A stretch of 64,000 bases of DNA from a virus. Lineage: Duplodnaviria > Heunggongvirae > Uroviricota > Caudoviricetes. Within the stretch, counting starts at the first letter, position 1; each line of letters starts with the position of its first letter. The translations under genes were made by a program, and so were the position numbers. The stretch lies in the IMG/VR virus record IMGVR_UViG_3300042914_002848; one strand, 5' to 3'. Below the pieces are notes generated by a model, which was given only the letters and a program-made list of their open reading frames with translations, was not told the DNA's origin and searched no databases. This document shows, piece after piece, positions 6,453 through 61,124 of the stretch.

Positions 6453-6484
6453 CAAATATACAAAATAATTTTTAAAGTGCCAAA
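6453..6484 (-). promoter_or_regulatory. Bacteroidetes sigma70-type promoter
   Basis: Sense TTTG-N20-TATATTTG (perfect), 7 nt upstream of the ATG at 6445. Confidence 0.75.
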
Positions 6485-8537: not shown

Positions 8538-9530
8538 TTAAAATATATCACCCCAATCTTCACCTTCACCTGCTTTACTATAATCGGTTGGCCTCATAGC
8601 AAAGAAATCAGTATGAGTCAATCCTCCCGTAAGGTGGTAAAACCACTCTAAATTACCTGCACTAACTTTATCATACTCAAATATGGGGTCATAACCTAAT
8701 TCAACCAATTTTTCGTTAGCTCTTTGTTTTATAAACTCTTTTAAATCTACTGCTGACAAGTTTTCTAAATCACCCATCTCAAACATCTTATCAATAAACT
8801 TTAGTTCCATCTCCACCATCAACTTTGCAGCAAACTCTATATCTTTTCTTACCTCACCCAATAGTTCAGGAAATTCTTCACACATATGCCTGAATAACCC
8901 ACATCCCATTTTAGAATGTAAAGATTCATCCCTAACCGACCATTTCATCTGCTGACCTACTCCTTTCAGTAAGTTTCTCATCTGAAATGAATAAAGGACT
9001 GCAAACGATGAATACAAAGATACCCCCTCTGCAAACGCAGAAAAGATTGCCAAACTACGGCCTACCTCTGCTCTTGCTTTTGGATTTGTTTGTAACTCTT
9101 CAGGTGTCCAATTTGCTGATACTTGTGTTAGGAATTCAAATTTTTCTTTGATTTCCGGCTCATGCATAAATGCAGCAAAATCTTCTAATCCCAATGTTTC
9201 ATTAAGATAAGAATACGCAGTTGCATGGATTGTTTCTTGCGAACCAAACGCCATAGCCATCTGCCGTATCTCATGTTTTGGAAACCACTTTGTAACCATC
9301 CCTGTCCAATAATCAGAAACAGCGCATTCGGTTTGAGCGAACCCTAATAAGATATTGCCTACTAAATTCTTTTCATGCTTCTTTAAATTTTCTTTCCAAT
9401 CCTTCACATCCCCTTGCATTGGAATTTCGGTATGTAACCAAAAGGCCTGCATTTGGGGTAGCCATCCATCAGTATAATATTCTGGATATTCAAATGGTTT
9501 AAACGGTATTCTCTCTTCAAATAATCCCAT
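8538..9530 (-). CDS. nrdB: Ribonucleotide reductase class I beta subunit
   Basis: ETIHATAY (metal ligands plus radical Tyr), AEGVSLYSSF, RDESLH, HTDFF. Confidence 0.95.
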   Translation of the reverse strand: MGLFEERIPFKPFEYPEYYTDGWLPQMQAFWLHTEIPMQGDVKDWKENLKKHEKNLVGNILLGFAQTECAVSDYWTGMVTKWFPKHEIRQMAMAFGSQETIHATAYSYLNETLGLEDFAAFMHEPEIKEKFEFLTQVSANWTPEELQTNPKARAEVGRSLAIFSAFAEGVSLYSSFAVLYSFQMRNLLKGVGQQMKWSVRDESLHSKMGCGLFRHMCEEFPELLGEVRKDIEFAAKLMVEMELKFIDKMFEMGDLENLSAVDLKEFIKQRANEKLVELGYDPIFEYDKVSAGNLEWFYHLTGGLTHTDFFAMRPTDYSKAGEGEDWGDIF

Positions 9531-16588: not shown

Positions 16589-16594
16589 TCTTTA

Positions 16595-17801: not shown

Positions 17802-17832
17802 CAAATATACAAAAGAAATTTGATATTACAAA
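17802..17832 (-). promoter_or_regulatory. Bacteroidetes sigma70-type promoter
   Basis: Sense TTTG-N19-TATATTTG (perfect), 4 nt upstream of the PolA ATG. Confidence 0.75.
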
Positions 17833-25990: not shown

Positions 25991-26218
25991 CTATCTTTTT
26001 CTTGTTTGTGATTTTATTCTTGCAGCCTCTTTATCATGTGCCTTTTTTTCCTCATTCTTAAACTCAATAATTTTGGTTATGTAAAAAGTTCTCATCCACA
26101 CAGGCATATTATATACATCAGACCAGGTGAATCCACCATTGCCGTGATATATTAAATCAAAGATTTGGGAATGTAATAACTTTCTATACTCAGGTTGATG
26201 GCCAAAAAAAGGAAACAT
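25991..26218 (-). CDS. gp51-like/gpT-like tail assembly chaperone segment, possibly reached by frameshift
   Basis: QIFDLIYHGNGGFTWSDVYNMPVWMRTFY; overlaps the 3' end of the upstream gene in the +1 frame. Confidence 0.6.
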   Translation of the reverse strand: MFPFFGHQPEYRKLLHSQIFDLIYHGNGGFTWSDVYNMPVWMRTFYITKIIEFKNEEKKAHDKEAARIKSQTRKR

Positions 26219-27062
26219 CCATAGGTAGACTGATTTCCCTCCTCTCCCCGGTTTCATCGGAAATAAACTCATACATCAAGTCTATATCAGGTGTTACCTC
26301 ATTTATATATTTTCTTAGCTCCTTTGAATCTCTTGCAAATAACTCATTGTCTACAAAGTGATTTATTTTTTGTTGGTTGTATTCCCCATCAACTGAAAGA
26401 ATTATTGTTTTTAATCTTGTAGTTAATTCTCGTGAAACATCATCCTTCAATTTTTTATTAACCCTTTTTAATTCTTCCAAATCATATTTTACTTTTCGTT
26501 CCTTTGATTCTGTCATTGCCATAAAAGTAATCTTGCGTTTTGAAGCGGGTAATTCAAACTCAAATTCGTTTTTGTTTAATTCCACCTGAGCCGAACCATC
26601 GTATGGTTTATTTTCAAATTGAGTTAAATCAATACTCTCTTTTTGTTTTTTATTTGTAAATGGGTCGGTAATCTCAACCTCATAATCTTTACCATAACCT
26701 AAGATGCGGCTTGCAATCATTATTGCGTTTTTATCACCTACTGATAAATCAACATACTTAATAGGTTCACCATTTCCATTTGATACAATAAGCGATTGGA
26801 ATAACTTATCCAACACCGAACCATCTTTAATGTAAGATTGGGTAGTTAAAATATCCTCTTCCTTTGCAGTCATATATTTTAATTCCACCTTACCTGATGA
26901 TAGGGGGTTATCCTTACTATAAATTAAACCTCGTGAAGGTAATTCTATAATTTCAGTTGGAAAATTGTGCTCTTTTAGTTTTTGGGTTTCGTAGGCTTGT
27001 TTAATACTATCTACAACCTCTTTATTACTTTGTTGATAATCATCCGTTAGATTTTGGCTCAT
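26190..27062 (-). CDS. T4 gp26-like baseplate hub assembly/tail chaperone
   Basis: IELPSRGLIY, VELKYMTAKEEDIL, GDKNAIMIASRILGYGKDY, ends in FFWP. Confidence 0.75.
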   Translation of the reverse strand: MSQNLTDDYQQSNKEVVDSIKQAYETQKLKEHNFPTEIIELPSRGLIYSKDNPLSSGKVELKYMTAKEEDILTTQSYIKDGSVLDKLFQSLIVSNGNGEPIKYVDLSVGDKNAIMIASRILGYGKDYEVEITDPFTNKKQKESIDLTQFENKPYDGSAQVELNKNEFEFELPASKRKITFMAMTESKERKVKYDLEELKRVNKKLKDDVSRELTTRLKTIILSVDGEYNQQKINHFVDNELFARDSKELRKYINEVTPDIDLMYEFISDETGERREISLPMDVSFFWPST

Positions 27063-27179: not shown

Positions 27180-27671
27180 TTAATATTGTAGCACGGCGTA
27201 ATCATAGGATAATCCCAATTCCACATTTGCTAATTCTGAATCTGATGTATAATCCATATCTGAAAATTTGGCTCTAGTAATAAAAGCCCCCTTCAATGTC
27301 CATTCTTCAACTTTATCGCCAACCGGCCCTAATGAATTAAATGTAATCTCTTTTTTATAAAAATCAGAATAACCATCTCTACCTGTTACTGATTCGTGAT
27401 GTAGGCGAACCCATTCCATAACGGCTTGTGCGCCAGATGGAACAATCGGGTCATAAAGTGTAATGGTTAATTCCTGCCATTCAGACCTACCCTTTACATA
27501 TCTCCTAACATTGACATGGTCAACTGTTATTCTATTTTGTTGTAGTTCAGGCCTATTTGCTGCTTTAATTAAATACGCAGGAATTCCCTCAATATACATA
27601 ATAAATCGATTAGCAACTTTGGGTTCAAAGTTGGTAAACATTATTTCTTGAGGTGTTAATAATTGTGCCAT
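27180..27671 (-). CDS. gp19: Tail tube protein
   Basis: FEPKVANRF, W..LTITLYDP, GRDGYSDFYKK, LSYDYA. Confidence 0.9.
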   Translation of the reverse strand: MAQLLTPQEIMFTNFEPKVANRFIMYIEGIPAYLIKAANRPELQQNRITVDHVNVRRYVKGRSEWQELTITLYDPIVPSGAQAVMEWVRLHHESVTGRDGYSDFYKKEITFNSLGPVGDKVEEWTLKGAFITRAKFSDMDYTSDSELANVELGLSYDYAVLQY

Positions 27672-27711: not shown

Positions 27712-30114
27712 TTATCCTTCAGGGAATGCTGCTCCAGTTGGTAATACACTAAAGTCTAATACAATGAATTCAGCAGTTTTCGCTGGTTGTAAGAAGATAT
27801 CACCTTTTAAGATGTTTCTATCAATTACATCAGGCGTATTGTTTGATTCATCCATTATAACTCTGAATGCGTACAAACCATTTCTTTGTTGAATTGATTC
27901 CAAGTAAGGATTAACAATGGATAAGAAACGATTTCGGGTTGCTGCTGTGTTATTTTCAAAAACCAAATATCTCGAAGAAGATGCGATAAACTTCTTAACT
28001 GCAATCAACAATCTTCTTACATTGATTCTATCCAACGCAGATGGTTTAGCTTGTAGGGTTTTCTGTCCAAATACAGTTGCTCCCTGACCAGGGAATGTTG
28101 CGATTGGATTCACTCTACCAACATATAATTCATCTCTCTCATCGTGCGTTAATCTTGTCTTAACCTCAATTACATTTGATAATCCACCACGATTCAATCC
28201 AGCAGGTGCGTACCATTCGGCTGCAACCTGGTCATTGAATGCGATAACGCCAGGTAGAACTACGGATGGTGGGACCCAAACAGGCTTATTCTTATCCGTA
28301 TCCAATATCTTAACCCAAGGGTGGTATGTTGCTACATAGTTGGAATCAAACGAAGAAAGTGAATTTACAACGGTTGATATATTATCACTCCAAGCACCAC
28401 CATCCATTACAAAGAATGTATCACCTCTATCTTCACAAAGGTCTTTTGCGTATGTGGTTACTGAAGAGTGTAATCTATTAATTACACCAGGAATAACAAT
28501 CATATTCATATCAAACTCATCAGGATTTGATACTGCGTTTATTGCTTTTCTCAATGCAACAGTTCCTGCTGAGGTTGCTGATGTACAATCTAATCCCTGT
28601 GTGTTTCCTGTTACAATATCATTACCAACTAATACTTTTCTATTAGGTTGGAATCCATCAAAACCACCTTGAAATGGTATCATAAATTTCCTAGCATCCA
28701 ATTGAGCGGTTGTGGCACTATCAGTTAAAGAAATGGTAGTACTATTTGATTCACAAGTAGCCAAATCAAAATCAGAACCAACCGTAGTAGTGCTTGCATC
28801 GGGAAGTGGATTCAAAAAGTTTAAGTTATCAGTTGTAACAAAATCAAAAGAATAACCTAAATATACATTTTTATTGTATGAACCCGCCAATGATTGAGAT
28901 GCTACATAAGTAGGGGATGGAACAGTATAAGTTGATGGTATTGGTGATGTTAAAGCGCCAAATCCAAAAGGTAATAGCGACGAATCTATTGCTGCTGCGT
29001 CTACATCCGAATCAACTTCTACTCTAATGTAAACTGAATTGTTTGCATAATCACCATTTGTAGATAATTTTCCATTTGCATCTACAGTAATAAATCTATC
29101 ACCAATTACTCTTTTGATATAATTTGGTGAATTTGGGTCTAAGTTTACATTGTTGAATTCCTCTAAAGTATTAGGACGAGTGTCCGAATCTTGTACTCCT
29201 TGTCCAAAAATTGAATAAGGAATTTTAGAGGTATCTACTCTTCTTACTACAACAGTAAATGTACCATAGTCAGAACCTGGAACATCTGCCGCAGTTTTAA
29301 TATCTCTGATACCCACTTTGATTTCATAGTTCGTTGAATTACCATGCGATAATGTATGGAACTTAAATAAGTTTACAGCAGTTCCACCAATCTTTTGTGA
29401 TTTAATAAAAGGTGTTGATGCTACTGAATATTCTTCTGAAAAATCAAATGTTGCAAATGATGCGGTTTGAACAAATACAATGTTACCACCAGTTTCTGCT
29501 GCAAAAGAAGCCGATTGGAATGTATTAAAGTTTAGGTATGTATATGCTTGTTTACTACTTTTCGGTAAGTATCCAAATGTTTTTGTAAAGTAATTTGCAC
29601 TAGTTGGATTTAAGGAAGATGTTGTAGTGTTATTCCCCGTAAATGCCGAACCTGATAGAATTAATCCAAATGATGATGCGGTTACATTCGTTGTTGCACC
29701 ACCTACCAAATTTCTAACAAAAGATGTTTGAAACAAATCACCAGTAGCACTCGGAATAGAACCACTCAAAGATGGATAAAGAACCGCTGCTACTCTATTT
29801 CCTTGTGAAGAGGAAATGTTTAAAACTAATGGTTTAGCAAATGTGTACCCATCAGTTCCTAATACCCTAACAATTGTTGCATTAGGAGCATCCTGCAAAT
29901 AAGCTTGAGCGGTATAAGGAAGGTATGAATCCTCCGTTAAACCACCAAACTTTTGTTGGAACTCATTAAATGATTCAACCCGCGTTGGTACAAACGCAGG
30001 TCCTTTGATAGTTTGTCCGATAAGGACAGCACCTATTTCTGCTACCCCTTGAGGTAAAAACGATAAGTCCTTTTCTCGTGTAAAAACACCCGGACTAACA
30101 ATTCTTTCAGCCAT
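27712..30114 (-). CDS. gp18: Tail sheath protein
   Basis: SPGVFTRE, PAGLNRG, GQKTLQ, LDRINVRRL, PAKTAEFI. Confidence 0.95.
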   Translation of the reverse strand: MAERIVSPGVFTREKDLSFLPQGVAEIGAVLIGQTIKGPAFVPTRVESFNEFQQKFGGLTEDSYLPYTAQAYLQDAPNATIVRVLGTDGYTFAKPLVLNISSSQGNRVAAVLYPSLSGSIPSATGDLFQTSFVRNLVGGATTNVTASSFGLILSGSAFTGNNTTTSSLNPTSANYFTKTFGYLPKSSKQAYTYLNFNTFQSASFAAETGGNIVFVQTASFATFDFSEEYSVASTPFIKSQKIGGTAVNLFKFHTLSHGNSTNYEIKVGIRDIKTAADVPGSDYGTFTVVVRRVDTSKIPYSIFGQGVQDSDTRPNTLEEFNNVNLDPNSPNYIKRVIGDRFITVDANGKLSTNGDYANNSVYIRVEVDSDVDAAAIDSSLLPFGFGALTSPIPSTYTVPSPTYVASQSLAGSYNKNVYLGYSFDFVTTDNLNFLNPLPDASTTTVGSDFDLATCESNSTTISLTDSATTAQLDARKFMIPFQGGFDGFQPNRKVLVGNDIVTGNTQGLDCTSATSAGTVALRKAINAVSNPDEFDMNMIVIPGVINRLHSSVTTYAKDLCEDRGDTFFVMDGGAWSDNISTVVNSLSSFDSNYVATYHPWVKILDTDKNKPVWVPPSVVLPGVIAFNDQVAAEWYAPAGLNRGGLSNVIEVKTRLTHDERDELYVGRVNPIATFPGQGATVFGQKTLQAKPSALDRINVRRLLIAVKKFIASSSRYLVFENNTAATRNRFLSIVNPYLESIQQRNGLYAFRVIMDESNNTPDVIDRNILKGDIFLQPAKTAEFIVLDFSVLPTGAAFPEG

Positions 30115-33963: not shown

Positions 33964-34349
33964 CTAGTTACCTCTTTTGAAAGTTTTACTATACCTTCCA
34001 ATAATCTTGTAACCACACCTGTAGAGGATTCTAATTCTATATCGTAAACCCCCTCCGTAAAACTTAATCCAGATGATGTTGCTGCAGAAATAAATAAACC
34101 AACACTACCTGATGTTCTTGGTAATGTTAGTGATGCGGAGGTTGGTGTTAAGTTTAAACCCGTACCATCGGATGCGGTAACACTTGTTATTGATAGATGT
34201 GTTGTAGATGAATCTATCGTTGGTCTTATTTGCATCCTTGCCGTATATCCACTTAAATCAACAGGATTTCCATTAGAATCTTTATATTCCAACAATAAAT
34301 CAGTAGTTGCTCCCTGCTCTATGGTTAATAAGTATCTTCCTGCTGCCAT
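33960..34349 (-). CDS. Beta-sandwich virion adaptor protein (BppU-like)
   Basis: LTIEQGAT...DLSGYTARMQIR...GVYDIEL...RLLEG. Confidence 0.55.
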   Translation of the reverse strand: MAAGRYLLTIEQGATTDLLLEYKDSNGNPVDLSGYTARMQIRPTIDSSTTHLSITSVTASDGTGLNLTPTSASLTLPRTSGSVGLFISAATSSGLSFTEGVYDIELESSTGVVTRLLEGIVKLSKEVTR

Positions 34350-35138: not shown

Positions 35139-36806
35139 TTATTGACCGGAGATAGTCTCCAATCCGTTCACATACACTTTACCATAGAACTCACCTCTCA
35201 CCATTTCTTTGGCGTAGCGGGTCATAACACCCTTACGAGGAGTAAAGTTCTTATAGTCATACACAAGCGGAGTCATAATTAATGGAATGTATGGAGCGTA
35301 AACAGCACCAGTTTCCAAGAATTGTGTTCCTTTGTAACCCAACAACACAAGGTTTTCTTGCATATATGGATTCTTATACACTTTGTAACGCTGAGCGAAA
35401 GAACCTACACGGGTTAAACCGAATGCGAATTCTCTCTCAGCACCAGTTCCATCAGCTACATAGCCAGGAATTGATTCTAACACAGTTGCAACATCAGGAG
35501 ATACTACTAAGAAGTTTGCACCACCACGCATTGTCTTAGCGTGAATTTGGTTAGAAACTCTTTGTAATACAGTTCCGAATGTAGCGAACCAAGTTCCCTG
35601 AATGTAAGCTTGTCCGTTCAAGTTAGTATCTTGTACGAATGCACTACCATTCCAAACTTGTCCGATTTTTGCAGACCAGTAACCTGTAGTCAATGCGTTT
35701 TGAATTAACATATCCAAGATTTCAAAATCAATCTCTTGTGATACATATTCAGATAACATTGAAGTTAATTCTGCTTCTGCATCAATAGAGTGATATGCGT
35801 TCAAGTCCTGCGCAAATTCAGGTGTCCATTGTGCTTTCAACTTACGAGTCTTAGCAACAATCGGAATTGAACGCATCTCAATGTTCAATTCTGGCACATT
35901 CAAATCGGTTTCAGGATTTACTTCCATTGCAGATTTAGTTGTTTCAAAATCACCACGAGTATCAGATGTTGGTTGTTTTTGGTATTTTACAATAAGGTTT
36001 TGTTGAGCACCTGCTGCTGTCAACGAACCACTTACAATAAACGAAATGGTTGTATCGTTTACAATTTTTGTAAATTGTGGGAAGAACGCAGATACACCAG
36101 TACCTTCAATTGTAAAGGCACGAACACCTTCCAAATCAGGTCTTGTCAAACCAGCAACTGCAAGTGTTACTTTGTTAAACGCGGCTGAGGCACTGTAAGT
36201 AGTAGTAAATGCTGAATCCCAATTAAACTCATCATCATCAGATGCTTTAGCAGGAATTACTGATGTGATAGAACCCGTTGTGGTTGCTGGTGCGAATGAA
36301 CCAGAAACTCTAATAGTTGCTGAATCATCATTGATGGTGTAACCGAAACGGCCAGCACCATATAGACCACCTGAAGACTGGTTAGCAGTTTCGGTGATAC
36401 CAAATACTGAGTCGGCTTGTGAATCTTTACCTGAACCAGTTGTGAAACCTGGCTGACCTGTTCCATACTTAAAATCTAAGTAGAAAATAAGACCGGAAGG
36501 AAGGTTCATTGGTTGTACTGAAACGAACTCTTTCGCAGCGATTTCAGAGAAAATACGACGAACAAGCGGAAGAGCTACACCATTCCACTCTTCACCATTT
36601 GCACCAAACATATTGGTTGCAGTTGCTTCAGTTACTAATTGTTTTGCTTGGTTTTCCAAAAGTTGTGCCATATTGGAAATTTCAGTCTCATTAGAAATTC
36701 CTTCTAAAAGACCTGTTTTTTTCCACTTAGCAACTAAACCTTTGGCTTCTTTACGAAGCACTCTTTCAAATCCAGCGCTTTCGTTTAAAATGCTTTTTAT
36801 ATTCAT
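35139..36806 (-). CDS. gp23: Major capsid protein
   Basis: VQPMNLPSGLIFYL, AKTRKLKAQWTPEFAQDLNAYHSIDAEAEL, YAPYIPL, MTRY. Confidence 0.95.
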   Translation of the reverse strand: MNIKSILNESAGFERVLRKEAKGLVAKWKKTGLLEGISNETEISNMAQLLENQAKQLVTEATATNMFGANGEEWNGVALPLVRRIFSEIAAKEFVSVQPMNLPSGLIFYLDFKYGTGQPGFTTGSGKDSQADSVFGITETANQSSGGLYGAGRFGYTINDDSATIRVSGSFAPATTTGSITSVIPAKASDDDEFNWDSAFTTTYSASAAFNKVTLAVAGLTRPDLEGVRAFTIEGTGVSAFFPQFTKIVNDTTISFIVSGSLTAAGAQQNLIVKYQKQPTSDTRGDFETTKSAMEVNPETDLNVPELNIEMRSIPIVAKTRKLKAQWTPEFAQDLNAYHSIDAEAELTSMLSEYVSQEIDFEILDMLIQNALTTGYWSAKIGQVWNGSAFVQDTNLNGQAYIQGTWFATFGTVLQRVSNQIHAKTMRGGANFLVVSPDVATVLESIPGYVADGTGAEREFAFGLTRVGSFAQRYKVYKNPYMQENLVLLGYKGTQFLETGAVYAPYIPLIMTPLVYDYKNFTPRKGVMTRYAKEMVRGEFYGKVYVNGLETISGQ

Positions 36807-36832: not shown

Positions 36833-37972
36833 TTATTTTTTGATATTAGCGAGTTTTTGGAATCTCATTGCCAATGAAGAACCTTCGGTAATGATACCAG
36901 CAGGCTTTGTTCCTTTAGTTGGTCTTGATGCAAATGATTCTTTTACAACTCTATTTTGTGTTTTTCTTGCAACATTAAGATTTTCACCCAATGTAGCGAA
37001 AACTAATTTTACTTCTCTCAAAGATGAAGCACGGTCAAAGTTTTCAACAACTTTAACTTTTTGCTTTTCATTCAAATCAAAGTTTCTGAAAAGTTTGTTA
37101 GTGTATAAAAGTTTTGCATTTAAAAGGTTTACCTCATTGATGGTATTCTTCAATGATTTGATAACTTTATATGCTTCTTCTAAATCACTCTTCATTTCAT
37201 CAGCTTCTTCTTCGGTCATACCAGCAGTATCTTCTTCATCTTCAGCAGGTACATCACCATTCATTTCTCTAAGGGCTCTGATAACCTCATCTAAATTAAC
37301 TTCTTCATCACCATCTTCTTCTTCTGCAACAAAATCACCTTCTTCAGGATATTCAGTACCACCAGTTAAATCATCTACTTTGTTATCACCAGTTCCAATT
37401 GCAGAAGATTCCAATTCAGTTAATCTCTTACTGATTCTTTCACGAATTCTTTTTAATTCGGTGATTTCAGGATTTTCCATTTCTTCCTCTTCTTCAGTTG
37501 TGATGGTTTCATCTTCTTCACCACCCATTTCAGCTTCCAATTCTTTGATAATTGATTCTAAATCCAAATCCGACATATCCTCTTCTTCACCACCCATTTC
37601 ATCCTCATCATCTTCTTCTTCGGCTTCTTCACCACCCATAGTACCCATCATCATTTCATCTTCTTCTTCAGTTGTCATAGTGTCATCTTCTTCACTACCC
37701 ATTTCATCTTCTTCAGTTGTCATGGTTTCATCTTCTTCACCTTCGTAGCCTTCACCATATCCTTCTTCAGTACCCATCATCATCTCATCTTCTTCGGTTG
37801 CAAGAGTTTCATCATCTTCTAACTCTTCGGCCAATTTGTGAGACAACATAGACTGTAGTCTTGGTGTGAATGCTTCCTCAAGGGCGATTTTTGCATTTGC
37901 TAATGCGGTTTCCTTAACGGCTTTAGCATCGGCGATTGCTTCTTTAAGCAAATCTTTTTTGCCTGTTTTCAT
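36833..37972 (-). CDS. Prohead core/scaffold protein (gp22-like)
   Basis: LLKEAIADAKAVKE, very acidic middle, NEVNLLNAKLLYTNKLF; directly upstream of the capsid gene. Confidence 0.85.
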   Translation of the reverse strand: MKTGKKDLLKEAIADAKAVKETALANAKIALEEAFTPRLQSMLSHKLAEELEDDETLATEEDEMMMGTEEGYGEGYEGEEDETMTTEEDEMGSEEDDTMTTEEEDEMMMGTMGGEEAEEEDDEDEMGGEEEDMSDLDLESIIKELEAEMGGEEDETITTEEEEEMENPEITELKRIRERISKRLTELESSAIGTGDNKVDDLTGGTEYPEEGDFVAEEEDGDEEVNLDEVIRALREMNGDVPAEDEEDTAGMTEEEADEMKSDLEEAYKVIKSLKNTINEVNLLNAKLLYTNKLFRNFDLNEKQKVKVVENFDRASSLREVKLVFATLGENLNVARKTQNRVVKESFASRPTKGTKPAGIITEGSSLAMRFQKLANIKK

Positions 37973-38072
37973 TTAATCTCCTAAATTTTTTGGAAAAATA
38001 AGATTATTAAAAATCTTAATAAGTGTTATAATAATGTTAGCCCCACAATTAGTATTAGGGCATTAATTTAAC

Positions 38073-38080
38073 AATAAATA
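38073..38080 (-). promoter_or_regulatory. Putative late promoter variant TATTTATT
   Basis: Upstream of the scaffold-capsid operon. Confidence 0.5.
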
Positions 38081-38111
38081 TAGTAATTTTTTTGAAAACA
38101 CTAAAAAGTTG

Positions 38112-38369
38112 TTATTTTTCTAAACTTTTTAAATATTGTTTTCTTTTTGCTAATTCTAATTGTTTTCTTTTTGAAATAGATTTAGGAACAAATTCAGTTC
38201 TTTCCCTTAATTCATCCATTATTCCACTATCTTTAACCATTTTTTTAAAAAGCCTCATTGCAGCATCTACATTGTTTTCTACTACTTTTACTGCAATTCC
38301 CCCACCGGGTTTATACATTAATTCTCTTCTGACTTTTTTCTTTTTTGGTCTTTCTTCGTTTTCACTCAT
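38112..38369 (-). CDS. rpsU: Phage-encoded 30S ribosomal protein bS21
   Basis: VKVVENNVDAAMRLFKKMVKDSGIMDELRERTEFVPKSISKR matches the bS21 pattern. Confidence 0.9.
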   Translation of the reverse strand: MSENEERPKKKKVRRELMYKPGGGIAVKVVENNVDAAMRLFKKMVKDSGIMDELRERTEFVPKSISKRKQLELAKRKQYLKSLEK

Positions 38370-38389
38370 CGTAACTTTGTTTAAATTGT

Positions 38390-38710
38390 TTATTGTATAA
38401 CTTCTAAGTTTTGAATGGATTCTTCTATTAATCCACCTTTTGTTCTTACTATTGCAGTTTTATTGTTTATTTCCATTACAACCCCACCCGTATTTTTGCC
38501 CTTAACAAAAACAGGTGAACCAACTTCAACAGTTGGACCAGCTACTTTTACATTTTCAGATATATCATCCAATACAACTTTAAATGCACGGATTGCTTTA
38601 GAAATACCCTGTTGTTGTTTTCTTGGTAATTTACCAATATCTTTTAGATTATCTTTTATAAAGTCAGAAAACTTTAAAGATATGTTTTGTATAATGTCTA
38701 TTGCTGGCAT
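38390..38710 (-). CDS. Hypothetical protein with C-terminal KOW/SH3-like strand set
   Basis: VEVGSPVFVKGKNTGGVVMEINNKTAIVRT. Confidence 0.55.
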   Translation of the reverse strand: MPAIDIIQNISLKFSDFIKDNLKDIGKLPRKQQQGISKAIRAFKVVLDDISENVKVAGPTVEVGSPVFVKGKNTGGVVMEINNKTAIVRTKGGLIEESIQNLEVIQ

Positions 38711-38725
38711 AGTATGTGTTACCTT

Positions 38726-40216
38726 TTATTTTTTGTGTGATTGATATCCCTTACCCTTCATCCACCAAGCCAATGCCCAAGGATTATCAATACCCGGTTC
38801 ATCTTTCATTGCTTTTACTGTCTTTTCCCATCCTTCGGGTGCAACTTCATTTTTTAGTTTGTTATTCTCCATAAATGGTTTAAATGCCGATGTAACTTTA
38901 TCTATACTCATTCCATCAAATTTGTTCTGCATCTTAACATCACCTGAATTATATAGTTTTAACAACTTCTCTGCGGTTTTCTTATCAACTTTGGTAGAAC
39001 CAATACGAGAGGTTGAACCATTAGCCACCTGCTTTAATAAATCAGATAATCTTGCGGTTGCCTCACTTAACGACTTTTTTTTTAAAAGACTTGTTAATCT
39101 CATAGATTCATTGGTAAATTCCTCTGCATTCTTTTTATCGGCTGGGTCTACATCAGTTACTTTGTAAGTTTTCCCATCAACAGTAAAACTATCTTTGCCT
39201 GCTGCTATTGCCTTTGCTCTTTCTGCACCAAACTCATTACCTTCTTCTATTTCAACATCGTTTAATGATTCTTTAATAGAATACTTCATATGAGATGGCG
39301 CTGAACTTTGCAATGCTTTCATAGCAATTAACAAATCACCCTTACCTTTACCAGATAATACTTCGTATCTCTCACCGGTCTTTTCATTGTAAACAATTAC
39401 TTTTGCTTCATTCACATTCTCTTTTAACTTTTTTGCTAAAACATCATCGGTATAGTATTGAGTTCTACCACCACCTTGAAACTTATAGCTGTATTTATCT
39501 TCTTTTGGTAAATAATCAATTGATACCAATTTCATTTTTACAGGTTTTACCATCCCAGAACCATCCCCACCTACCATCATAGTAGCTCCAACTTTCATTA
39601 GTTTATCATTTGCTTCATTAACTCTTTTTTTGTTTTTGAGGAATGAACCCAATTTCATATTACTCATATTTTCTCCTACGAACTCTTCTGCGTTCTTTTT
39701 ATCTTCTGAATCTACACCTGTTACTTTGAAACTTTTACCACCTACATTAAAGGTATCATCACCCGATGCTATTGCTTTTGCTCTTTCTGCACCAAACTCA
39801 TTACCTTCTTTAATTTCATAATATTTACCTAACACCTCACCAATCTCATCATACGATGATTCTAATCTTTGTTGAAGAGTTGCTACTTCTTTAATTGTGC
39901 TTGAAAAAATCTTAAATGATTCATTCATTGATTTCATATGGCGATTAACCGTTACTTTATCAAACCAATCACCAGTTTCTTTTAAGGTTAATTTTTCAGC
40001 GGTTTCTACGATGTTTTTAATATTCTCATAGGCCTCCATCAAATTACCATTGTGATAAATTGCTTCACCGATTTTTCTATAAGATGCCACCGCTTCAATA
40101 AAAGCACGCTTTTCATCAGGTGTCATTGATGTATCATCTAAATCTTCCTCACCTATGTTTAATCTACGATAATCTAAGTGTTGAGATTCTTTAAGTAAAT
40201 TTAATAATTTTTTCAT
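38726..40216 (-). CDS. Modular head-associated protein with xNE/xxE linkers
   Basis: Duplicated EGNEFGAERAKAIA module, multiple VNE/LKE/LSE sites; located in the head module. Confidence 0.6.
   Translation of the reverse strand: MKKLLNLLKESQHLDYRRLNIGEEDLDDTSMTPDEKRAFIEAVASYRKIGEAIYHNGNLMEAYENIKNIVETAEKLTLKETGDWFDKVTVNRHMKSMNESFKIFSSTIKEVATLQQRLESSYDEIGEVLGKYYEIKEGNEFGAERAKAIASGDDTFNVGGKSFKVTGVDSEDKKNAEEFVGENMSNMKLGSFLKNKKRVNEANDKLMKVGATMMVGGDGSGMVKPVKMKLVSIDYLPKEDKYSYKFQGGGRTQYYTDDVLAKKLKENVNEAKVIVYNEKTGERYEVLSGKGKGDLLIAMKALQSSAPSHMKYSIKESLNDVEIEEGNEFGAERAKAIAAGKDSFTVDGKTYKVTDVDPADKKNAEEFTNESMRLTSLLKKKSLSEATARLSDLLKQVANGSTSRIGSTKVDKKTAEKLLKLYNSGDVKMQNKFDGMSIDKVTSAFKPFMENNKLKNEVAPEGWEKTVKAMKDEPGIDNPWALAWWMKGKGYQSHKK
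39203..39810. repeat. 44-nt near-identical direct repeat pair (39203-39246 and 39767-39810)
   Basis: One mismatch between copies; encodes EGNEFGAERAKAIA. Confidence 0.9.
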
Positions 40217-40242: not shown

Positions 40243-41631
40243 TTAATAAATATCTAATTTTCCATTATTAGATATGCGGGCAACTTTGATAAATGTAGAT
40301 TTTTTTGCCGATTCTTTGATTACAACAATTCCATTCTCATCACCTCTTTTAGCAGTTTTAATACCACCCTCAATTGAATCTAATTTATGTCTTACTTTGT
40401 TTGAGCCTTTTACATTACCATTTTTATCCGATGGAACTAATGTTGCCGAAAAATCATCCATATCCACAATTTTATAATATCGGCCACCTTCAATTCCTTT
40501 TAACATAGTAAATCCCTGTCCCAATATTACCGAACCTATTTTTAAGTCAGTTGGATATTTGGCTTCGTTTACTGATTCAGTTGTTATCTTTTTTGATTTA
40601 AAATATGCAATTACATCTTTACCAGTATCAAATGCTTTTTGACCTCTCCAAGAAGAATGATACATCCAATATGAATTGCTTCCATCTTCCCAATCAAAAT
40701 CACCCGAAGATATTTCTCTACCATCATAGGTTAAATACCCAACACCTTGTTTAGAATAAAAACGATATTTACCATCTCTAAAATTAACATCTTCGTTTAC
40801 CGATTCGGTTTTACGCTTACTAACTACAACTCTTTGATGTCTAATTTCATCTTTAATTGTATTAATCAATGAGTTCATATCTTTGTGGTCCGATACTTTA
40901 GTTTCTTCGTAATTACTTTTACCATCATCACCTTTCCAGTTAAACCCAACATAGTCTTTATTTTTTCCAACATATTTTATTTCAACTCTAGTATTACCAA
41001 CTTTAATAGTAGAACCATCCTTTGGTAATTCTGCTTCGTTTACTGATTCACTCATCTTAAAATAGAAATATTTTCTCATATAGTCCAATGACTTTATGAT
41101 ATCTTGTAATTCTCTTTTACCCTTTGGTCCAAGTTCCGCATCTTTCAAATATGCACTTAAAACTGCATATGCTCCATTTACAAATTGGTATGGGTTTTCA
41201 GCTTTTACAGTATATGAAGCCTCATTTACTGATTCTAAATTCAAACTTCTTTGTGCGTTAGTCAAACCACTAATGATAGATTTTAATCCACCCTTAACAC
41301 CTTCAGTATCTTTAGCTTGAACTTTTTTGTCCAAAATTTTGGTGTTCATTTTTAAAAAGTTGATGATTGCGTTTTGAACTGCGTTCCAATTTAAATCAGC
41401 TTCGTTTACTGATTCGGATACATTAGAATCCCTAAGAATAGACTGAGCCATAGTTGAAACAAAGTTTATTTTAGCTTTAGATAGTGTTTCTAAATCATCT
41501 TTTGATAACTTCTTTAAAGCCATCATAAGTTTTTTAACGGCCGGAGAATTTGGGTTTATTTTTTTAATATCACCGTAAGTTGCTTTTAACAAATTTATTT
41601 GATTCTGATTAATAGATTCTTTTAATCTCAT
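40243..41631 (-). CDS. Modular head-associated protein with five ESVNE linkers
   Basis: Unrelated 60-80 aa modules separated by (S/T/L)ESVNE(A/D); adjacent to the prohead protease. Confidence 0.65.
   Translation of the reverse strand: MRLKESINQNQINLLKATYGDIKKINPNSPAVKKLMMALKKLSKDDLETLSKAKINFVSTMAQSILRDSNVSESVNEADLNWNAVQNAIINFLKMNTKILDKKVQAKDTEGVKGGLKSIISGLTNAQRSLNLESVNEASYTVKAENPYQFVNGAYAVLSAYLKDAELGPKGKRELQDIIKSLDYMRKYFYFKMSESVNEAELPKDGSTIKVGNTRVEIKYVGKNKDYVGFNWKGDDGKSNYEETKVSDHKDMNSLINTIKDEIRHQRVVVSKRKTESVNEDVNFRDGKYRFYSKQGVGYLTYDGREISSGDFDWEDGSNSYWMYHSSWRGQKAFDTGKDVIAYFKSKKITTESVNEAKYPTDLKIGSVILGQGFTMLKGIEGGRYYKIVDMDDFSATLVPSDKNGNVKGSNKVRHKLDSIEGGIKTAKRGDENGIVVIKESAKKSTFIKVARISNNGKLDIY
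40563..41415. repeat. Five dispersed 16-nt direct repeats (sense GAATCAGTAAACGAAG)
   Basis: Copies at 40563, 40791, 41034, 41220 and 41400 (three identical, two variants); spacings 228/243/186/180. Confidence 0.85.
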
Positions 41632-42266
41632 TTTATTTCTCCAAAATTACATTCGCAATATCCACCAATTTCACAAATAATATCTCTCATAATATCGTTT
41701 GCCTTTTGATATTTATTAACATTATTAACATTACGATTAACACCTTCATTAACAGGCTTTAAAAACGCACCATAGGTTGATGGGTTACTTACAAAATCCC
41801 AACATATTAAATCAAAATCACCCTCAACTGCAACTGTCCCATCTTCTTTGATTTGGCGAACCGAACCCATACCCCGTGATGATATACCAACTGTACACCC
41901 TGCTTCTACTAGCTCTTTAAGTATTCTACCCGCTGGGGTATTAAGTATTTCTACTTTCCCAACTACATCTGTACCATCCCACCAAATATCTCTAATAATG
42001 TGCGATGTGTTCTTTAATTCAACTACAGAAGATTCTGGGTGGTCTAATTCTCCATAAGCACGATTTTCTTTGATTTCCCTACCTTTGTATTTTAAAACTT
42101 CACGCTTTAATATACTTTCGGGATATACTCTACCATTTTGGTTTTTTTCGTTTGCTCTTTGTAGAACACCACTTACGATAAGTCTACCATCACCCTTCAT
42201 CGCAGCTTCTTTGAGCTGCTGGGGTTTTACATCAAATACAATAGTATCAACTAATAGCTGTTTCAT
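41628..42266 (-). CDS. gp21: Prohead core protease
   Basis: NQNGRVYP, GELDHP, GISSRGMGS, WDFVSNPS. Confidence 0.95.
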   Translation of the reverse strand: MKQLLVDTIVFDVKPQQLKEAAMKGDGRLIVSGVLQRANEKNQNGRVYPESILKREVLKYKGREIKENRAYGELDHPESSVVELKNTSHIIRDIWWDGTDVVGKVEILNTPAGRILKELVEAGCTVGISSRGMGSVRQIKEDGTVAVEGDFDLICWDFVSNPSTYGAFLKPVNEGVNRNVNNVNKYQKANDIMRDIICEIGGYCECNFGEIK

Positions 42267-43673: not shown

Positions 43674-45587
43674 TTAAACCATATCATTTAGTATGTTTTT
43701 CTCATCTAACATACCAACTTCATTAACTTCATCATCAGTTGAAAGCGATTCAATTATCATTTTTTTGGTTTTAATTTTTGATTTTTGCAAACTTGCTTTC
43801 AATTGTACACCTTCAATTGATAATGGCGATTTTCTATAATTGTGATATGTTGATTCAGGTGATATATTTTTTTCATATCCCAATGGGTTTCTTCCAAAGT
43901 TACTTTCATCCGTTCCAGTTGTACTTCCCTTTTGTGGAGCACCTGCGCCAGGAAACCCACCTTCAGGTGAACCACCCTCAGGTCCTACTTCACCATTTGT
44001 TGGAGCGGGTGCTTGTTGCCCACCACCTTCAGCGGATTGTTGAGATACAACAGCCATATCATGTGGTGTTCCAAATGATTCACCTGTTTTGACTGGGTCA
44101 TTACCTTCATTTTCAATTTGATTCTGTCTAAACCCTAACTTCAAATCATCAATAACTTTTTGTTGTTCAGCTTTCCACTCATCATCGGACATATTAAATA
44201 TATTCTTATATATCCACTCTTGTGATAGTAATTTTGATGTTTTAATATCGCTTGCCAATCTAACATTCTCAACCCATAATGCAACTTTTTCTTGCTGATA
44301 AACAATTGATGGTGGGGTTAGTTCTAACCAAAAGTTTGCTAAATCCTCATTCTCATACCCTTGAGCGTAAAGATGGATAATTGCTATTTTGGTTAATTCC
44401 GATAAAACGATTTTTTGTACTCTTTCAATACTTCGTGCAAAACGAATATCTTGTTGTGCAAGTGTTGCTTTACCGTCCACACCCTCTTCATATCCAATAA
44501 ATGCTTTTGGAACTTTAAGAGCGGCCATCATTCGGTTTTTTAAATAATTTATATCTTCAATCCCCGTAAATTCCATACCACTTAAAGTATCAATTTGAGT
44601 ACCAGACTGACCACCTCTGACGGGTAAGTAATAATCTTCTAACATATTTTGAATGTTGAATTTAAGATTATAATCTCCAGTTTGTTGGTCTACATAAGGA
44701 ATTTTTTTCATTTGGTCAATAATATTTCTAATGTGCTGGTCAACCTCATTTGGTGGAATATTACCAACATCAATTTTAAAGACCCTCTTTTCAGGTGCTC
44801 TCATAATACGATGAATTAACATCGCATCTTCCATAAGGGTTAATTGCTTCCAAGTTTTTCTTGCAGGCTCTAAAAGTGAACGGCCGTATGGTAAAAAGTT
44901 TGTATCTGAAAATAATCTAAAATGTGCTATTTTATAAAACGGAATATAATTATGAAAATCATTTTGAGATTTTTGGTAATTAAATCCTGTAGCACCACCA
45001 CCAAAGGTTGTCATTTTAAAACGAACTTCAAATGGATTATCTTCGTTAAACCCTTCTTCTCTCTCAACCTCATATGCTGATATGGGTGATACATTTACAA
45101 TTCCAACACCCTCTTCTATATCCAAATTTAAATAATAATCACCATATTTGTTCATCCCCCTAATCCATGCCCATAAATTAAATTCAATATTTAAAACATC
45201 GTAAAAAAGGTTGTGTAGTATTTTTTTGATATTTTCATCATCGGAGTTAATTCGTAAAACATCGCCTACATCGTTTTTAAGAGTGCACTCATCCGAATAT
45301 ATATCTAACACCGATGCGATAATTGAATCTTTATCCATTGCTTCATAATCGGTATATAGCTCTAATCTATTGGATGAATAATTGTATTGGTTATTGTATG
45401 TTTCCCAATTTTGACGGGTACTATGCAATCTACCAAATCTATCGTAGTAAGATGTTCCTTTTATGTTACCTTGTGATTGTAATCTTTGTGTGTCAATTGC
45501 ACGGGTCTTACCCTTACCAATTCTCCTTATAACAACTTGCGTTGAAAAAAGTCTTTGCAATCTACCGAATAATGATTTATCTGCCAT
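43674..45587 (-). CDS. gp20: Portal protein
   Basis: LMEDAMLIHRIMRAPEKRVFKIDVGN, EDYYLPVRGG, ALKVPKAF, DIRF. Confidence 0.95.
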   Translation of the reverse strand: MADKSLFGRLQRLFSTQVVIRRIGKGKTRAIDTQRLQSQGNIKGTSYYDRFGRLHSTRQNWETYNNQYNYSSNRLELYTDYEAMDKDSIIASVLDIYSDECTLKNDVGDVLRINSDDENIKKILHNLFYDVLNIEFNLWAWIRGMNKYGDYYLNLDIEEGVGIVNVSPISAYEVEREEGFNEDNPFEVRFKMTTFGGGATGFNYQKSQNDFHNYIPFYKIAHFRLFSDTNFLPYGRSLLEPARKTWKQLTLMEDAMLIHRIMRAPEKRVFKIDVGNIPPNEVDQHIRNIIDQMKKIPYVDQQTGDYNLKFNIQNMLEDYYLPVRGGQSGTQIDTLSGMEFTGIEDINYLKNRMMAALKVPKAFIGYEEGVDGKATLAQQDIRFARSIERVQKIVLSELTKIAIIHLYAQGYENEDLANFWLELTPPSIVYQQEKVALWVENVRLASDIKTSKLLSQEWIYKNIFNMSDDEWKAEQQKVIDDLKLGFRQNQIENEGNDPVKTGESFGTPHDMAVVSQQSAEGGGQQAPAPTNGEVGPEGGSPEGGFPGAGAPQKGSTTGTDESNFGRNPLGYEKNISPESTYHNYRKSPLSIEGVQLKASLQKSKIKTKKMIIESLSTDDEVNEVGMLDEKNILNDMV

Positions 45588-45590
45588 AAA

Positions 45591-45598
45591 TATAAATA
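45591..45598 (-). promoter_or_regulatory. Putative late promoter TATTTATA
   Basis: Exact copy, 3 nt from the portal ATG. Confidence 0.55.
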
Positions 45599-45606
45599 TA
45601 AATTTT

Positions 45607-47193
45607 TTACAATAACCAACTCAAGTCAACATCGTTACCACGAACATCCTTCATCAAGTACGGGTTTTGTGTTTGATTTCTGCTTGAAAATACTCCTGTC
45701 TGAGTTGAAGATATTTTAGTAATATGTGTTAATGCACTTCGGGTTAAATCCATCCCCTGCTGTCTTAATTTAAGAGCCGTATCTCTCACCCAAAGACCTG
45801 TAGAAAAGGATATAACCAAGTCATCATTGTAACCTCGTTGTGCTTCTGCTTTTGGCCCATTCCAAATAAACACAAACAATTCATCTAATAACCTTTTAGA
45901 ACGAATTATGGGAGATTTCTCTCTCATATAAGTATCTAACTTTGATATAATTAATGGACGGGTTTTTTGTGTTATTGAAAACCCTGGCACCATATCTTCT
46001 TTTTGTTTTAAATCCCACCCACGCCTTAAGTGGATGTCCTCATCTACATACCCCAACTCTCTATACGAATAGTAAAGGTTTTGATAATTACGGTCAATGG
46101 CTTCTTGAATTACCGCCCACCCAATGTTTGCGTTTTCAATTACCAAAAGAGCGTTGTTCCACTCCGTTGCAACTGATGTTAGAAAAGCCCCATATTGTTT
46201 TGTTTCTATCTTACCCCTATACTCTGCTACCTGTTCAATTCTTTCAACATCTATGACATGAAATGCGGAATAGTCTGCACCATCACCCCTAGCAACGTCG
46301 GCAACAACAATATAGTTTTTTTCATAGTTTGGGTAATCCCATATCCAATAATTCGCATCAAACCCGCGCTTTTCAACGGGTTCGGTAATATGGGTTTCAC
46401 TATACCACTCTAACACACTACCATCAACAACGGTGTAACCTGATGATATAAAGTCGGTATCACATTCTTGTGCAGCACCTTTCTCACCCAATAATCGGGT
46501 TTGTTCATCTCTCCATCGTTGATTTCTTTCGGGGTGAACTGTCCAATGTAATCTTGTTGGATGCCATTTATCACCTTGCTCACCCTGCAACCAAACTTTA
46601 TGAAAGAAATTACCTACACCATTTGGTGTTGAAAGAACGATAGCACCACCACCAGTTGAAAGTGTTGATTGTGCTGATAACCATATCTCTTCAATACCTT
46701 TGATAAATGCAGCCTCATCAATAATCAATAATGAAAGTGCTTCAGAACGGCCTGCTGTTTCAGTTGCAGAAACTGCTTTAATCTGAGAACCATTCTTTAA
46801 TCTAAGTGATAATTTGTTATCTTCTGCCGCAGGGACTTTTAACCAACTTGGTAGGTTATCATACATAAACCTAACTTTGGTTACAAGGTTTTTTGCTACA
46901 TCCTGTGTGGTGGCAATTACAAGTATGTTCTTATCTCTATGAAACAACATTAACCAAGTAGCATATCCAGCACTAATAGTGGATATACCTAATTGGCGTG
47001 ATTTAAGAATAACATTGAAACGATGTTCTTTAAAACTATCAATCAATCCCTCTTGGAAATCATAAAGATTAAATAGTATTTTCCCTCTATGGGGATGTTG
47101 TATGTAACAGTATTTTTTAAAAAAATATACCGGGTCTTTTGCACACTTTACATACTCATCGGATATTAATTCCTTTAAAGTTTTAGTAGCCAT
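45607..47193 (-). CDS. gp17: Terminase large subunit
   Basis: KSRQLGIST, LLIIDEAAF, STPNG, ADVARG, NDDLVIS. Confidence 0.95.
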   Translation of the reverse strand: MATKTLKELISDEYVKCAKDPVYFFKKYCYIQHPHRGKILFNLYDFQEGLIDSFKEHRFNVILKSRQLGISTISAGYATWLMLFHRDKNILVIATTQDVAKNLVTKVRFMYDNLPSWLKVPAAEDNKLSLRLKNGSQIKAVSATETAGRSEALSLLIIDEAAFIKGIEEIWLSAQSTLSTGGGAIVLSTPNGVGNFFHKVWLQGEQGDKWHPTRLHWTVHPERNQRWRDEQTRLLGEKGAAQECDTDFISSGYTVVDGSVLEWYSETHITEPVEKRGFDANYWIWDYPNYEKNYIVVADVARGDGADYSAFHVIDVERIEQVAEYRGKIETKQYGAFLTSVATEWNNALLVIENANIGWAVIQEAIDRNYQNLYYSYRELGYVDEDIHLRRGWDLKQKEDMVPGFSITQKTRPLIISKLDTYMREKSPIIRSKRLLDELFVFIWNGPKAEAQRGYNDDLVISFSTGLWVRDTALKLRQQGMDLTRSALTHITKISSTQTGVFSSRNQTQNPYLMKDVRGNDVDLSWLL

Positions 47194-47197: not shown

Positions 47198-47800
47198 TTA
47201 TTTACTTATTTGCCAATAAATCTTTCCCGTAAAGTTTGGACTTAGTTGATTATCTATCCCAGCACCGATTGCAAATGCCTTTCTTTTTTTGGTTCTGATT
47301 AATAATTCACCATTAGCAATCATATAATTTCTACTCCCCACGAAACCACCACCCAAATAGATTTCTCTTTTGTTTATTAAAATACTATGAGTAACAGTCT
47401 TAGTAGGAATAACAACATTTGTTATAGATTGGCGTGATTGAATTTGATTTTGTGAAATTGTATCTTTTAATACTACATATCCAAATGTATCTACTGCAAT
47501 GGTGTCCTGATAATAATATTTTGAATAGTAATCTGTTAAAAGAGCCATTGTATCAATTGGTTCGGTTTGATTTACTATAAAACTATCAATATCAATTACA
47601 ACTCTATCTTGCCATTTCGGCACATAAACTTTTGATTCATTGGTAATAGTATCGTATTTGTATGCCACCGTTGTTATGGTGTCTATGGTAGGTTCGTTGT
47701 TAAAAATTCCTTTAACAAAGCCCATAGGTAATTTATCCCTAAGTAAAAATAGGGCAATTAATACTACTATTACTAGTCCAAAAATTTTAGATATTTTCAT
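47198..47800 (-). CDS. Membrane-anchored hypothetical protein (possibly lysis-related)
   Basis: Start MKISKIFGLVIVVLIALFLL (N-terminal TM), Thr/Asp-rich middle, beta-rich C-terminus. Confidence 0.5.
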   Translation of the reverse strand: MKISKIFGLVIVVLIALFLLRDKLPMGFVKGIFNNEPTIDTITTVAYKYDTITNESKVYVPKWQDRVVIDIDSFIVNQTEPIDTMALLTDYYSKYYYQDTIAVDTFGYVVLKDTISQNQIQSRQSITNVVIPTKTVTHSILINKREIYLGGGFVGSRNYMIANGELLIRTKKRKAFAIGAGIDNQLSPNFTGKIYWQISK

Positions 47801-48095
47801 TGTTCTTCTTCTGCTTTTTTTGTTTCGCTCTGTAGTTATTTCTTCTTTTTGGTTTTGGTTTTTGTTCAACAACAGCTTCGGCTTTAGGTTCTTCGGCAAC
47901 AGGTGTTGCTTTTTTAGCTTCAGCTTTTAGCTCCTCAGCGATTGCTCCTACCCCCGTTGGTGATAATGCACCAACATATCTTACCGATGATGAAAAAATT
48001 GATTCTTCTGGATATGGATGTATCACTGTTTCAACCTTCTTTGGTTCGGTTTTTTGACCAAAAATTAAACGAAATAATCTTTTTAAAATGTTCAT
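47787..48095 (-). CDS. Small hypothetical protein, basic C-terminus
   Basis: 102-aa ORF with an AGGAGG SD and late motif at 48114. Confidence 0.6.
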   Translation of the reverse strand: MNILKRLFRLIFGQKTEPKKVETVIHPYPEESIFSSSVRYVGALSPTGVGAIAEELKAEAKKATPVAEEPKAEAVVEQKPKPKRRNNYRAKQKKQKKNNENI

Positions 48096-55078: not shown

Positions 55079-55120
55079 ATAGATAAATATAGAATTTATT
55101 TTTGATTATGTAGTTTTAAT

Positions 55121-61114: not shown

Positions 61115-61124
61115 TTAAAAAATG

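Follow-up and report, generated by a model that had tools for sequence, protein, structure and literature searches.

bS21 is the ribosomal protein most commonly encoded by viruses, and we know of no established function for the phage-encoded form. A 64,000-nucleotide (nt) stretch of caudoviricete DNA (IMG/VR record IMGVR_UViG_3300042914_002848; "the window" below means this whole stretch) carries such a gene in its head module, among late genes many of which are led by Shine–Dalgarno (SD) sites, and its relatives point to a Bacteroidota host. Bacteroidia ribosomes are the best-studied case of an anti-SD sequence that is carried but unusable. In these ribosomes the anti-SD tail is buried by bS21, bS18, and bS6 (Jha et al., 2021, PMC7797042). 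The locus thus raises the question of what a bS21 gene and SD sites are doing together in a phage of such a host. The original prediction, made from the DNA letters, was that a phage bS21 lacking the occluding residue Tyr54 switches host ribosomes to SD-led late genes. The comparative analysis described here links phage bS21 to SD-led late genes, points away from residue 54 as the general cause, and leads us, tentatively, to a late feed-forward loop in place of a switch.

Co-occurrence of bS21 and Shine–Dalgarno sites

Loci were collected around relatives of the major capsid protein (MCP) in two IMG/VR scans, one centered on the window's group and one on Flavobacterium phage vB_FspM_immuto (NC_055915; hereafter immuto). 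Each scan comprised at least 600 stretches, from which 80 loci were used, and a minimum of 4 kb upstream of the MCP gene and 10 genes per locus left 94 that were non-identical. SD-led late genes were found only in head modules that encode bS21, with no exceptions among the 94. SD sites preceded 269 of 910 genes (29.6%) in the 47 loci with bS21, the lowest locus standing at 0.09, and 16 of 774 genes (2.1%) in the 47 loci without it, immuto included, the highest of which reached 0.10 (raw Mann–Whitney p 3e-17, uncorrected for phylogeny). An SD or weak SD precedes the MCP gene in 48 of 54 loci with bS21 vs 2 of 10 without. Six-frame hidden Markov model searches of the loci confirmed the absence of bS21, as did a search of the entire immuto genome against Pfam. 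One apparent bS21-less locus with SD sites, L086, was rejected because tblastn shows that it encodes a bS21 missed by the gene caller. All the bS21 genes found lie on the coding strand, and in the first sample of 52 loci with the gene it ends 1.07–1.36 kb (42 loci) or 2.4–3.9 kb (10 loci) before the MCP start. The link is correlative; literature searches found no paper reporting it, and the survey is the first comparative support for it.

In the window, with start codons picked without regard to SD motifs and the region from -40 to +16 scanned, the 4-mers GGAG, GAGG, and AGGA begin at -13 to -9 in 27 cases vs 0–2 elsewhere. GGAG or GAGG marks 14 of the 64 genes and AGGA 8 more, against 0–5 and 0–2, respectively, at shifted control positions. 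Enrichment over background had been set as a test of the original prediction, and the sharp peak and the excess over controls provide it. Every motif listed in that prediction is present in the sequence: AGGAGA before the scaffold, sheath, tube, and nrdB genes, AAAGGAG before 26190–27062, GAGGAG before 33960–34349, and AGGAGG 7 nt before the ATG at 48095. The SD-led set comprises the scaffold, MCP (weakly), sheath, tube, and hub-like proteins and several head–tail joining genes. By direct reading, the 30 nt upstream of bS21 (tatacaataaacaatttaaacaaagttacgATG) contain no SD site, as the original prediction had already noted. The suggested check by anti-SD pairing energy failed: in DNA as AT-rich as this, true start regions and controls could not be told apart by their duplex free energies against the 14-nt 16S tail, and positional motif counts were used for that reason. 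The genes were called with a home-made procedure, whose adequacy is supported by the positional peaks and by the contrast that immuto shows when treated in the same way.

The window's close relatives in IMG/VR are G002 (161.6 kb; bS21 82% identical), G003, G006, G007, and G012. The -13 to -9 peak recurs in G002; there, 18 of the 98 genes at 20–120 kb are SD-led, vs 1 of 113 in the rest of the genome. When homologues of the window's late genes were compared with all other genes by Fisher's test, SD sites were found on 26% vs 7% in G002 (p 8e-4), 25% vs 10% in G007 (p 0.029), 21% vs 12% in G006 (p 0.14), and 0% vs 1% in immuto (p 1). Early regions are at or below SD background (1 of 113 genes in G002; about 5–6% in G006 and G007 vs 4–6% in controls). 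The SD enrichment on late genes is therefore real, if not exclusive. In immuto SD-like words precede the starts of 3 of 222 genes vs 10–20 of 222 at control positions inside or between genes, which suggests selection against SD-like start regions in this bS21-less Flavobacterium phage.

The host of the window's clade is very probably a member of the Bacteroidota with a type IX secretion system (T9SS), because T9SS cargo is encoded by relatives, TTTG-N19/20-TATATTTG promoters are present, and early genes lack SD sites; the Bacteroidia-type host of the original prediction is supported to this extent. A T9SS C-terminal sorting domain scores above the Pfam cut-off in G002, G003, G006, G007, and G012, and T9SS cargo is also present in immuto; at the same cut-off none was found in Mel-JY01, G008, G009, or G010. 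The G002 cargo protein (518 aa; L024, positions 131487–133043 (-)) also has a signal peptide, and its T9SS sorting domain, of type A, lies at the very C-terminal end. SD-less start regions of G002 and immuto share an A peak at -12/-13 and a T at -1, a pattern not seen in Mel-JY01 or G010.

The two closest cultured phages stand on either side of the bS21 divide. A tblastn search with the MCP matched 2,585 T4-like records, and phages Mel-JY01 (PP395634; 57.6% identity) and immuto (51.1%) were the closest in culture. Mel-JY01 carries RpsU in the same protease–scaffold slot on the coding strand, but this protein is about 27% identical to the window's bS21, has a basic C-terminus without an aromatic residue, and lacks the basic extension; SD sites occur genome-wide, and the recorded host is a cyanobacterium (Microcystis). 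Its genome (L022; 34% G+C) also has a TTTG-N17-21-GTATATTT promoter-like element in common with the window's clade (6 copies on the coding strand, 1 on the other). Immuto resembles the window in its T4-like head and tail modules, ATATTTAT motif, T9SS cargo, and G+C content, but has no bS21 anywhere in its genome and no SD peak.

Forms of phage bS21 and the residue at position 54

The bS21 open reading frame (ORF; 85 aa) matches Pfam PF01165 (Ribosomal_S21) over profile positions 2–55 of 55 (E 2.3e-11, 43.7 bits, cut-off 27), and phmmer gave 30 matches to bS21 chains of solved ribosomes, led by 9t0z_U (E 4e-6) and 7jil_z (E 3.8e-5). A 24-aa basic N-terminal extension precedes the S21 core. AlphaFold 2 predicts the three helices expected for bS21 (34–48, 50–58, and 63–84; mean predicted local distance difference test score 75). 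A Foldseek search of the PDB with the isolated model returned no match, as expected for an extended helical ribosomal protein modeled alone. Judged by its sequence, the gene is a genuine phage copy of bS21, whose product would presumably be incorporated into 30S subunits.

In a gapless phmmer alignment with Flavobacterium johnsoniae bS21 (PDB 7jil_z), KAAY stands against LAKR and Tyr54 against Arg76. The same correspondence emerges from two MAFFT alignments (150 representatives; 46 related phage bS21 proteins), so that the Arg proposed in the original prediction is borne out, and it does not vary within the window's clade. The window's protein thus lacks the Tyr at position 54 (F. johnsoniae numbering) that marks a Bacteroidia-type, anti-SD-occluding bS21. 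Three residues past Arg76, position 79 is conserved as Tyr or Trp in the clade (Tyr79 in the window) and aligns with the His/Tyr of the proteobacterial KRH/KRY motif. The C-terminal helix is rich in Lys and Arg and by phmmer aligns best with proteobacterial KRY/KRH-type tails, a comparison made with individual chains.

Searches for further relatives gave little. Neither tblastn with bS21 (E 1e-3) against 50,697 phage records nor megablast of the bS21 region against phage records found a match, and a scan of bacterial genome contigs with a profile of the bS21 alignment found no relative of the window's form. A search of 1.84 billion protein representatives yielded 1,524 matches, which come without names or taxonomy. 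No phage homologue of bS18 or bS6 was found in five large relatives.

A phage bS21 in the head module is of an already known kind, and the window's form is a distinct variant; its co-occurrence with SD sites appears to be unreported. Clades a–e of Chen et al. (2022, ISME Commun 2:31, PMC9723584) likewise have bS21 amid terminase, portal, protease, and capsid genes, predicted Bacteroidota hosts, and an association with late expression; ribosome-binding sites were not analyzed in that study. In those clades bS21 lies on the reverse strand, genomes reach 331 kb, and Tyr54 or another aromatic is present, whereas the window's gene shares the strand of all its neighbors (as do all 52 in the first sample), its complete or near-complete relatives measure 157–216 kb, and its protein combines Arg at 54 with the basic extension. 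The bS21 of F. johnsoniae belongs to the same family and has the same three-helix core (PMC7797042; PMC9976891), but is a 64-aa protein with Tyr54 whose gene, rpsU, carries an extended SD for autoregulation (PMC9976891), an arrangement described for many Flavobacteriales. Pelagibacter phage HTVC008M, among other viruses, also encodes a bS21 (Mizuno et al., 2019, PMC6375957), which according to the literature can enter Escherichia coli ribosomes; it belongs to another phage lineage with another host and is not among matches to the window's protein, the phage-record tblastn search having found none.

Five forms of bS21 can be distinguished among the related phages (Table 1). In every type I, III, and IV locus, and thus unlike F. 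johnsoniae rpsU, the bS21 start lacks an SD although about a quarter of the neighboring genes are SD-led. The type IV sample was extended with a five-sequence alignment, a set of 14 Tyr54-type bS21 proteins having proved too diverse for the purpose, and the 41 further type IV-related loci so found showed strong SD sites on 18.9% and weak ones on 18.8% of genes (controls 2.1% and 3.6%). Type II bS21 genes have a weak AGGA in most loci; those of type V mostly have a GAGGT-type SD on a TTG or GTG start, two others having a GGGGG run that the motif rule does not count. Types II and V lack the T at -1 signature and have SD sites genome-wide, and probably infect SD-recognizing hosts. Many type I loci (L053–L067 and others) have a conserved GGTGTATTTTTTT-like element 15–28 nt before the bS21 ATG, which is absent from the window and might be an internal promoter or a bS21-specific RNA element.

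Table 1. Forms of phage bS21 and SD sites at their loci (positions in F. johnsoniae numbering)
Form	Representative	Residue 54 and neighborhood	N-terminal extension	Strong SD (control)
I	window's clade	Arg; Tyr/Trp at 57	22 aa, basic	25.9% (4.2%)
II	Mel-JY01	Lys/Arg; no aromatic	about 11 aa, not basic	35.3% (2.8%)
III	G009	Tyr	about 17 aa, basic	25.8% (4.6%)
IV	L104	Tyr/Phe, often KAAYIQ as in F. johnsoniae	about 16 aa, basic	17.1% (1.2%)
V	G010	Leu	none	46.2% (3.9%)

The original prediction ascribed release of the anti-SD to loss of Tyr54. As a general cause this does not hold: types III and IV keep Tyr or Phe and still have SD-led late genes, and the change from Tyr54 to Arg is therefore not the deciding feature.

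The bS21 operon and its promoters

All 64 called genes of the window are on the minus strand. PHROG matches give the head-gene order as terminase large subunit, portal, two uncharacterized genes, protease, three more (462, 496, and 106 aa), bS21, scaffold-like protein, MCP, and PhoH, so that bS21 occupies the prohead-core slot, with the protease gene on one side and the scaffold gene on the other. Portal, prohead protease, scaffold, gp23-like MCP, sheath, and tube form one co-oriented block, a T4-like myophage module (Table 2). The best explanation of the window's source is a T4-like phage of roughly 180–190 kb with a Bacteroidota host.

Table 2. Features of the window, all on the minus strand
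Feature	Position	Evidence
bS21	38112..38369	Pfam PF01165, phmmer, AlphaFold 2
20-nt spacer 5' of bS21, no SD; A at -3, -12, -13	38370..38389	sequence read
106-aa ORF, same operon as bS21	38390..38710	one sub-threshold Pfam match, no PHROG match
repeat-containing 496-aa protein, encoded at the head of the bS21 operon	38726..40216	tblastn; no family assignment
ATATTTAT motif, 29 nt before the ATG of the 496-aa ORF; presumed bS21-operon promoter	40246..40253	
second ATATTTAT motif, just past the bS21 stop codon, heading the scaffold and MCP genes	38074..38081	
acidic scaffold-like protein, SD AGGAGA at 37977–37982	36833..37972	place adjoining MCP as in immuto and Mel-JY01
MCP (T4 gp23-like), weak SD AAAGGA	35139..36806	phrog_138 E 3.6e-70
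prohead protease	41628..42266	phrog_207 E 1.3e-54
portal; ATATTTAT ends 4 nt before ATG	43674..45587	phrog_213 E 1.1e-68
terminase large subunit	45607..47193	PHROG
tail sheath, SD AGGAGA	27712..30114	phrog_23 E 2.1e-70
tail tube, SD AGGAGA, 19 nt after a ATATTTAT motif	27180..27671	phrog_4542 E 4.9e-23
baseplate-hub-like protein, SD AAAGGAG	26190..27062	phrog_150 E 5.4e-12
102-aa ORF preceded by ATATTTAT and SD AGGAGG	47787..48095	
nrdB (ribonucleotide reductase small subunit), SD AGGAGA, outside the virion block	8538..9530	phrog_86 E 1.9e-71
Bacteroidota-type promoter TTTG-N19-TATATTTG, ends 4 nt before ATG	17802..17832	
Bacteroidota-type promoter TTTG-N20-TATATTTG, ends 7 nt before ATG	6453..6484	

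The window has 17 copies of the motif ATATTTAT on its coding strand and one on the other (shuffle mean 5.6), 13 of the 17 lying within 60 nt of a start codon, and the strand bias recurs in immuto (31 coding vs 4 other). By analogy with T4's TATAAATA, it may be the late promoter of this phage group. The bS21 operon consists of the 496-aa and 106-aa genes and bS21, separated by gaps of 15 and 20 nt. bS21 would be a late gene because ATATTTAT heads this operon, the gaps are short, a search between bS21 and the scaffold gene turned up nothing like a terminator, and the next ATATTTAT comes after bS21. Lying behind a late-type promoter, it would be expressed at the same time as the late genes, not earlier. 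A switch thrown ahead of late expression, as the original prediction had it, does not fit this order; a feed-forward action does. A generic scan for sigma-70 promoters and terminators near bS21 gave nothing above shuffles, and folding of the scaffold gene's 5' leader was not significant (z -1.5).

Four copies of ATATTTAT (61108–61115, 55083–55090, 45592–45599, and 16582–16589 (-)) end exactly 4 nt before the ATG of, respectively, a 60-aa ORF, an 801-aa protein, the portal, and a 724-aa protein, an arrangement conserved in G002. The mRNAs from these copies would have little or no leader, which would add a third type of start region to the SD-led and A-rich ones. The same would apply to mRNAs from the two Bacteroidota-type promoters. 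The original prediction counted three such nearly leaderless host-promoter genes; these two could be located and the third was not found.

The 496-aa protein tends to accompany bS21, being detected by tblastn in 35 of 38 loci with bS21 vs 8 of 41 without. It contains two internal repeats (EGNEFGAERAKAIA..GK.FKVT..D..DKKNAEEF), had no family or match in Pfam, PHROG, or the ESM Atlas, and could be a partner of bS21 or merely an additional prohead-core protein. Near-repeats of the EEDDETMTTEEDEM type are numerous in the scaffold-like protein, which is extremely acidic; its immuto homologue is annotated, probably wrongly, as a "DNA polymerase phi-like protein". The 102-aa ORF overlaps the upstream part of a TTG-start ORF (47198–47899), whose true start is probably further in; the simple gene caller took this longer ORF and so missed the SD-led one.

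Possible roles of phage bS21 in translation

In F. johnsoniae, mutation or depletion of bS21 turns ribosomes toward strong-SD mRNAs, and the Y54A and deltaC changes raise translation of strong-SD reporters 3- to 5-fold (McNutt et al., 2023, PMC9976891); altering bS21 is therefore enough to expose the anti-SD. Replacement of host bS21 by the phage protein has been proposed (Chen et al., 2022, PMC9723584), and neither study ties phage bS21 to SD sites in phage genes. Together with the survey, these observations lead us to a feed-forward model in which phage bS21 confers SD recognition on Bacteroidota ribosomes. Unmodified, SD-blind host ribosomes would make phage bS21 from its SD-less start region. 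The protein would then enter host 30S subunits, replacing or competing with host bS21, and subunits carrying it would gain SD recognition as the anti-SD is released. Translation of the SD-led scaffold, capsid, sheath, tube, and hub genes would rise as bS21 accumulates. We infer 30S incorporation, anti-SD release, and a translational benefit here, and hold the model tentatively, with confidence a little short of even. It would explain why SD sites persist under selection, why they disappear with each loss of bS21, and why the bS21 gene itself avoids them.

Several observations weigh against the feed-forward model. SD sites were predicted to mark late genes, and they are enriched there, but nrdA, nrdB, and the genes at 13134 and 14002 are SD-led outside the virion set, and four or more late genes seem to lack a leader. 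About four gains or losses of bS21 account for its distribution on the MCP tree, and well-supported branches compel three of these; SD status shifts along with bS21 each time, but with about four independent events a sign test cannot reach 0.05. Types III and IV, the Tyr54-type forms, share the SD peak of type I, while by the published model a Tyr54 bS21 should still occlude the anti-SD (PMC9723584), and the feed-forward model does not explain how such a protein would free it. The host, moreover, is an inferred one, and Mel-JY01, the closest cultured relative to carry bS21 in this slot, has Microcystis as its recorded host and uses SD sites throughout; host shifts to SD-competent bacteria in the clades with bS21 could give the same pattern, an account opposed by the T9SS cargo, promoters, and SD-free early regions of the window's clade.

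The Tyr54 difficulty would be eased if another part of the protein were responsible. The basic N-terminal extension is common to the three Bacteroidota-type phage forms and seems a better candidate than residue 54. On a broader proposal, phage bS21 would be a portable SD-competence factor whose presence decides SD use by late genes in T4-like phages of Bacteroidota, whose loss forces SD-less starts genome-wide, and whose active part is the extension, which would allow an SD–anti-SD helix to form on ribosomes that bury the anti-SD, by holding the 16S 3' tail or setting it free. This is conceivable, but we would sooner doubt it than rely on it.

Phage bS21 may instead take over or maintain ribosomes independently of SD sites, its divergent N-terminal helix drawing in phage mRNAs or the protein countering a host translation-stalling defense (Chen et al., 2022), with SD sites and bS21 linked by descent. 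The small number of independent events leaves room for such a linkage, a Tyr54-type phage bS21 would be expected to keep the anti-SD occluded, and bS21 also occurs in clades whose hosts probably use SD sites (types II and V). Against descent alone, SD sites are retained at orthologous genes across deep divergence (MCP identity 54–86%), which argues for selection, the peak is lost in all four bS21-less lineages, and SD-like words before immuto starts are fewer than at control positions. We consider this explanation somewhat unlikely.

The hosts of the bS21-encoding clades might also read SD sites natively, so that SD use mirrors the host and bS21 is incidental. Mel-JY01 and G010, with SD sites throughout their genomes and T9SS cargo not found, fit such a reading, as does the failure to find T9SS cargo in five long type IV contigs. 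In the window's clade, however, T9SS cargo and Bacteroidota-type promoters are present and early regions in G002, G006, and G007 are at or below SD background, and types III and IV bear the Tyr54 signature that the literature holds to be unique to Bacteroidia. Native SD reading is thus an improbable explanation for the whole pattern.

We are more skeptical still of the suggestion, raised by Chen et al. (2022), that bS21 is packaged as an internal head protein and injected to act early in the next infection. The prohead-core slot, the late promoter, and the conserved N-terminal extension, a possible capsid-targeting peptide, would suit packaging, but early genes are SD-less and would offer an injected SD-favoring factor no targets, and a T4-type L/I-x-E protease site was not seen when the extension was read by eye. 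Copies per virion would also be few compared with the number of ribosomes.

T4 RegB cuts GGAG, and a short motif with several copies directly after late promoters could be the site of a similar phage RNA-binding or processing factor, but the canonical SD spacing, the sharp peak, and the complementarity of AAAGGAG, AGGAGG, and GAGGT to the 16S tail make that reading scarcely credible.

The co-occurrence offers phage-encoded bS21 a concrete and testable function, in which a phage alters the choice of mRNAs by the ribosome. The published reporter and ribosome assays of F. johnsoniae are suited to a direct test of this SD-selection function. There is also a practical consequence, as gene callers tuned to the SD-less starts of Bacteroidota will treat these phages differently depending on whether they carry bS21.

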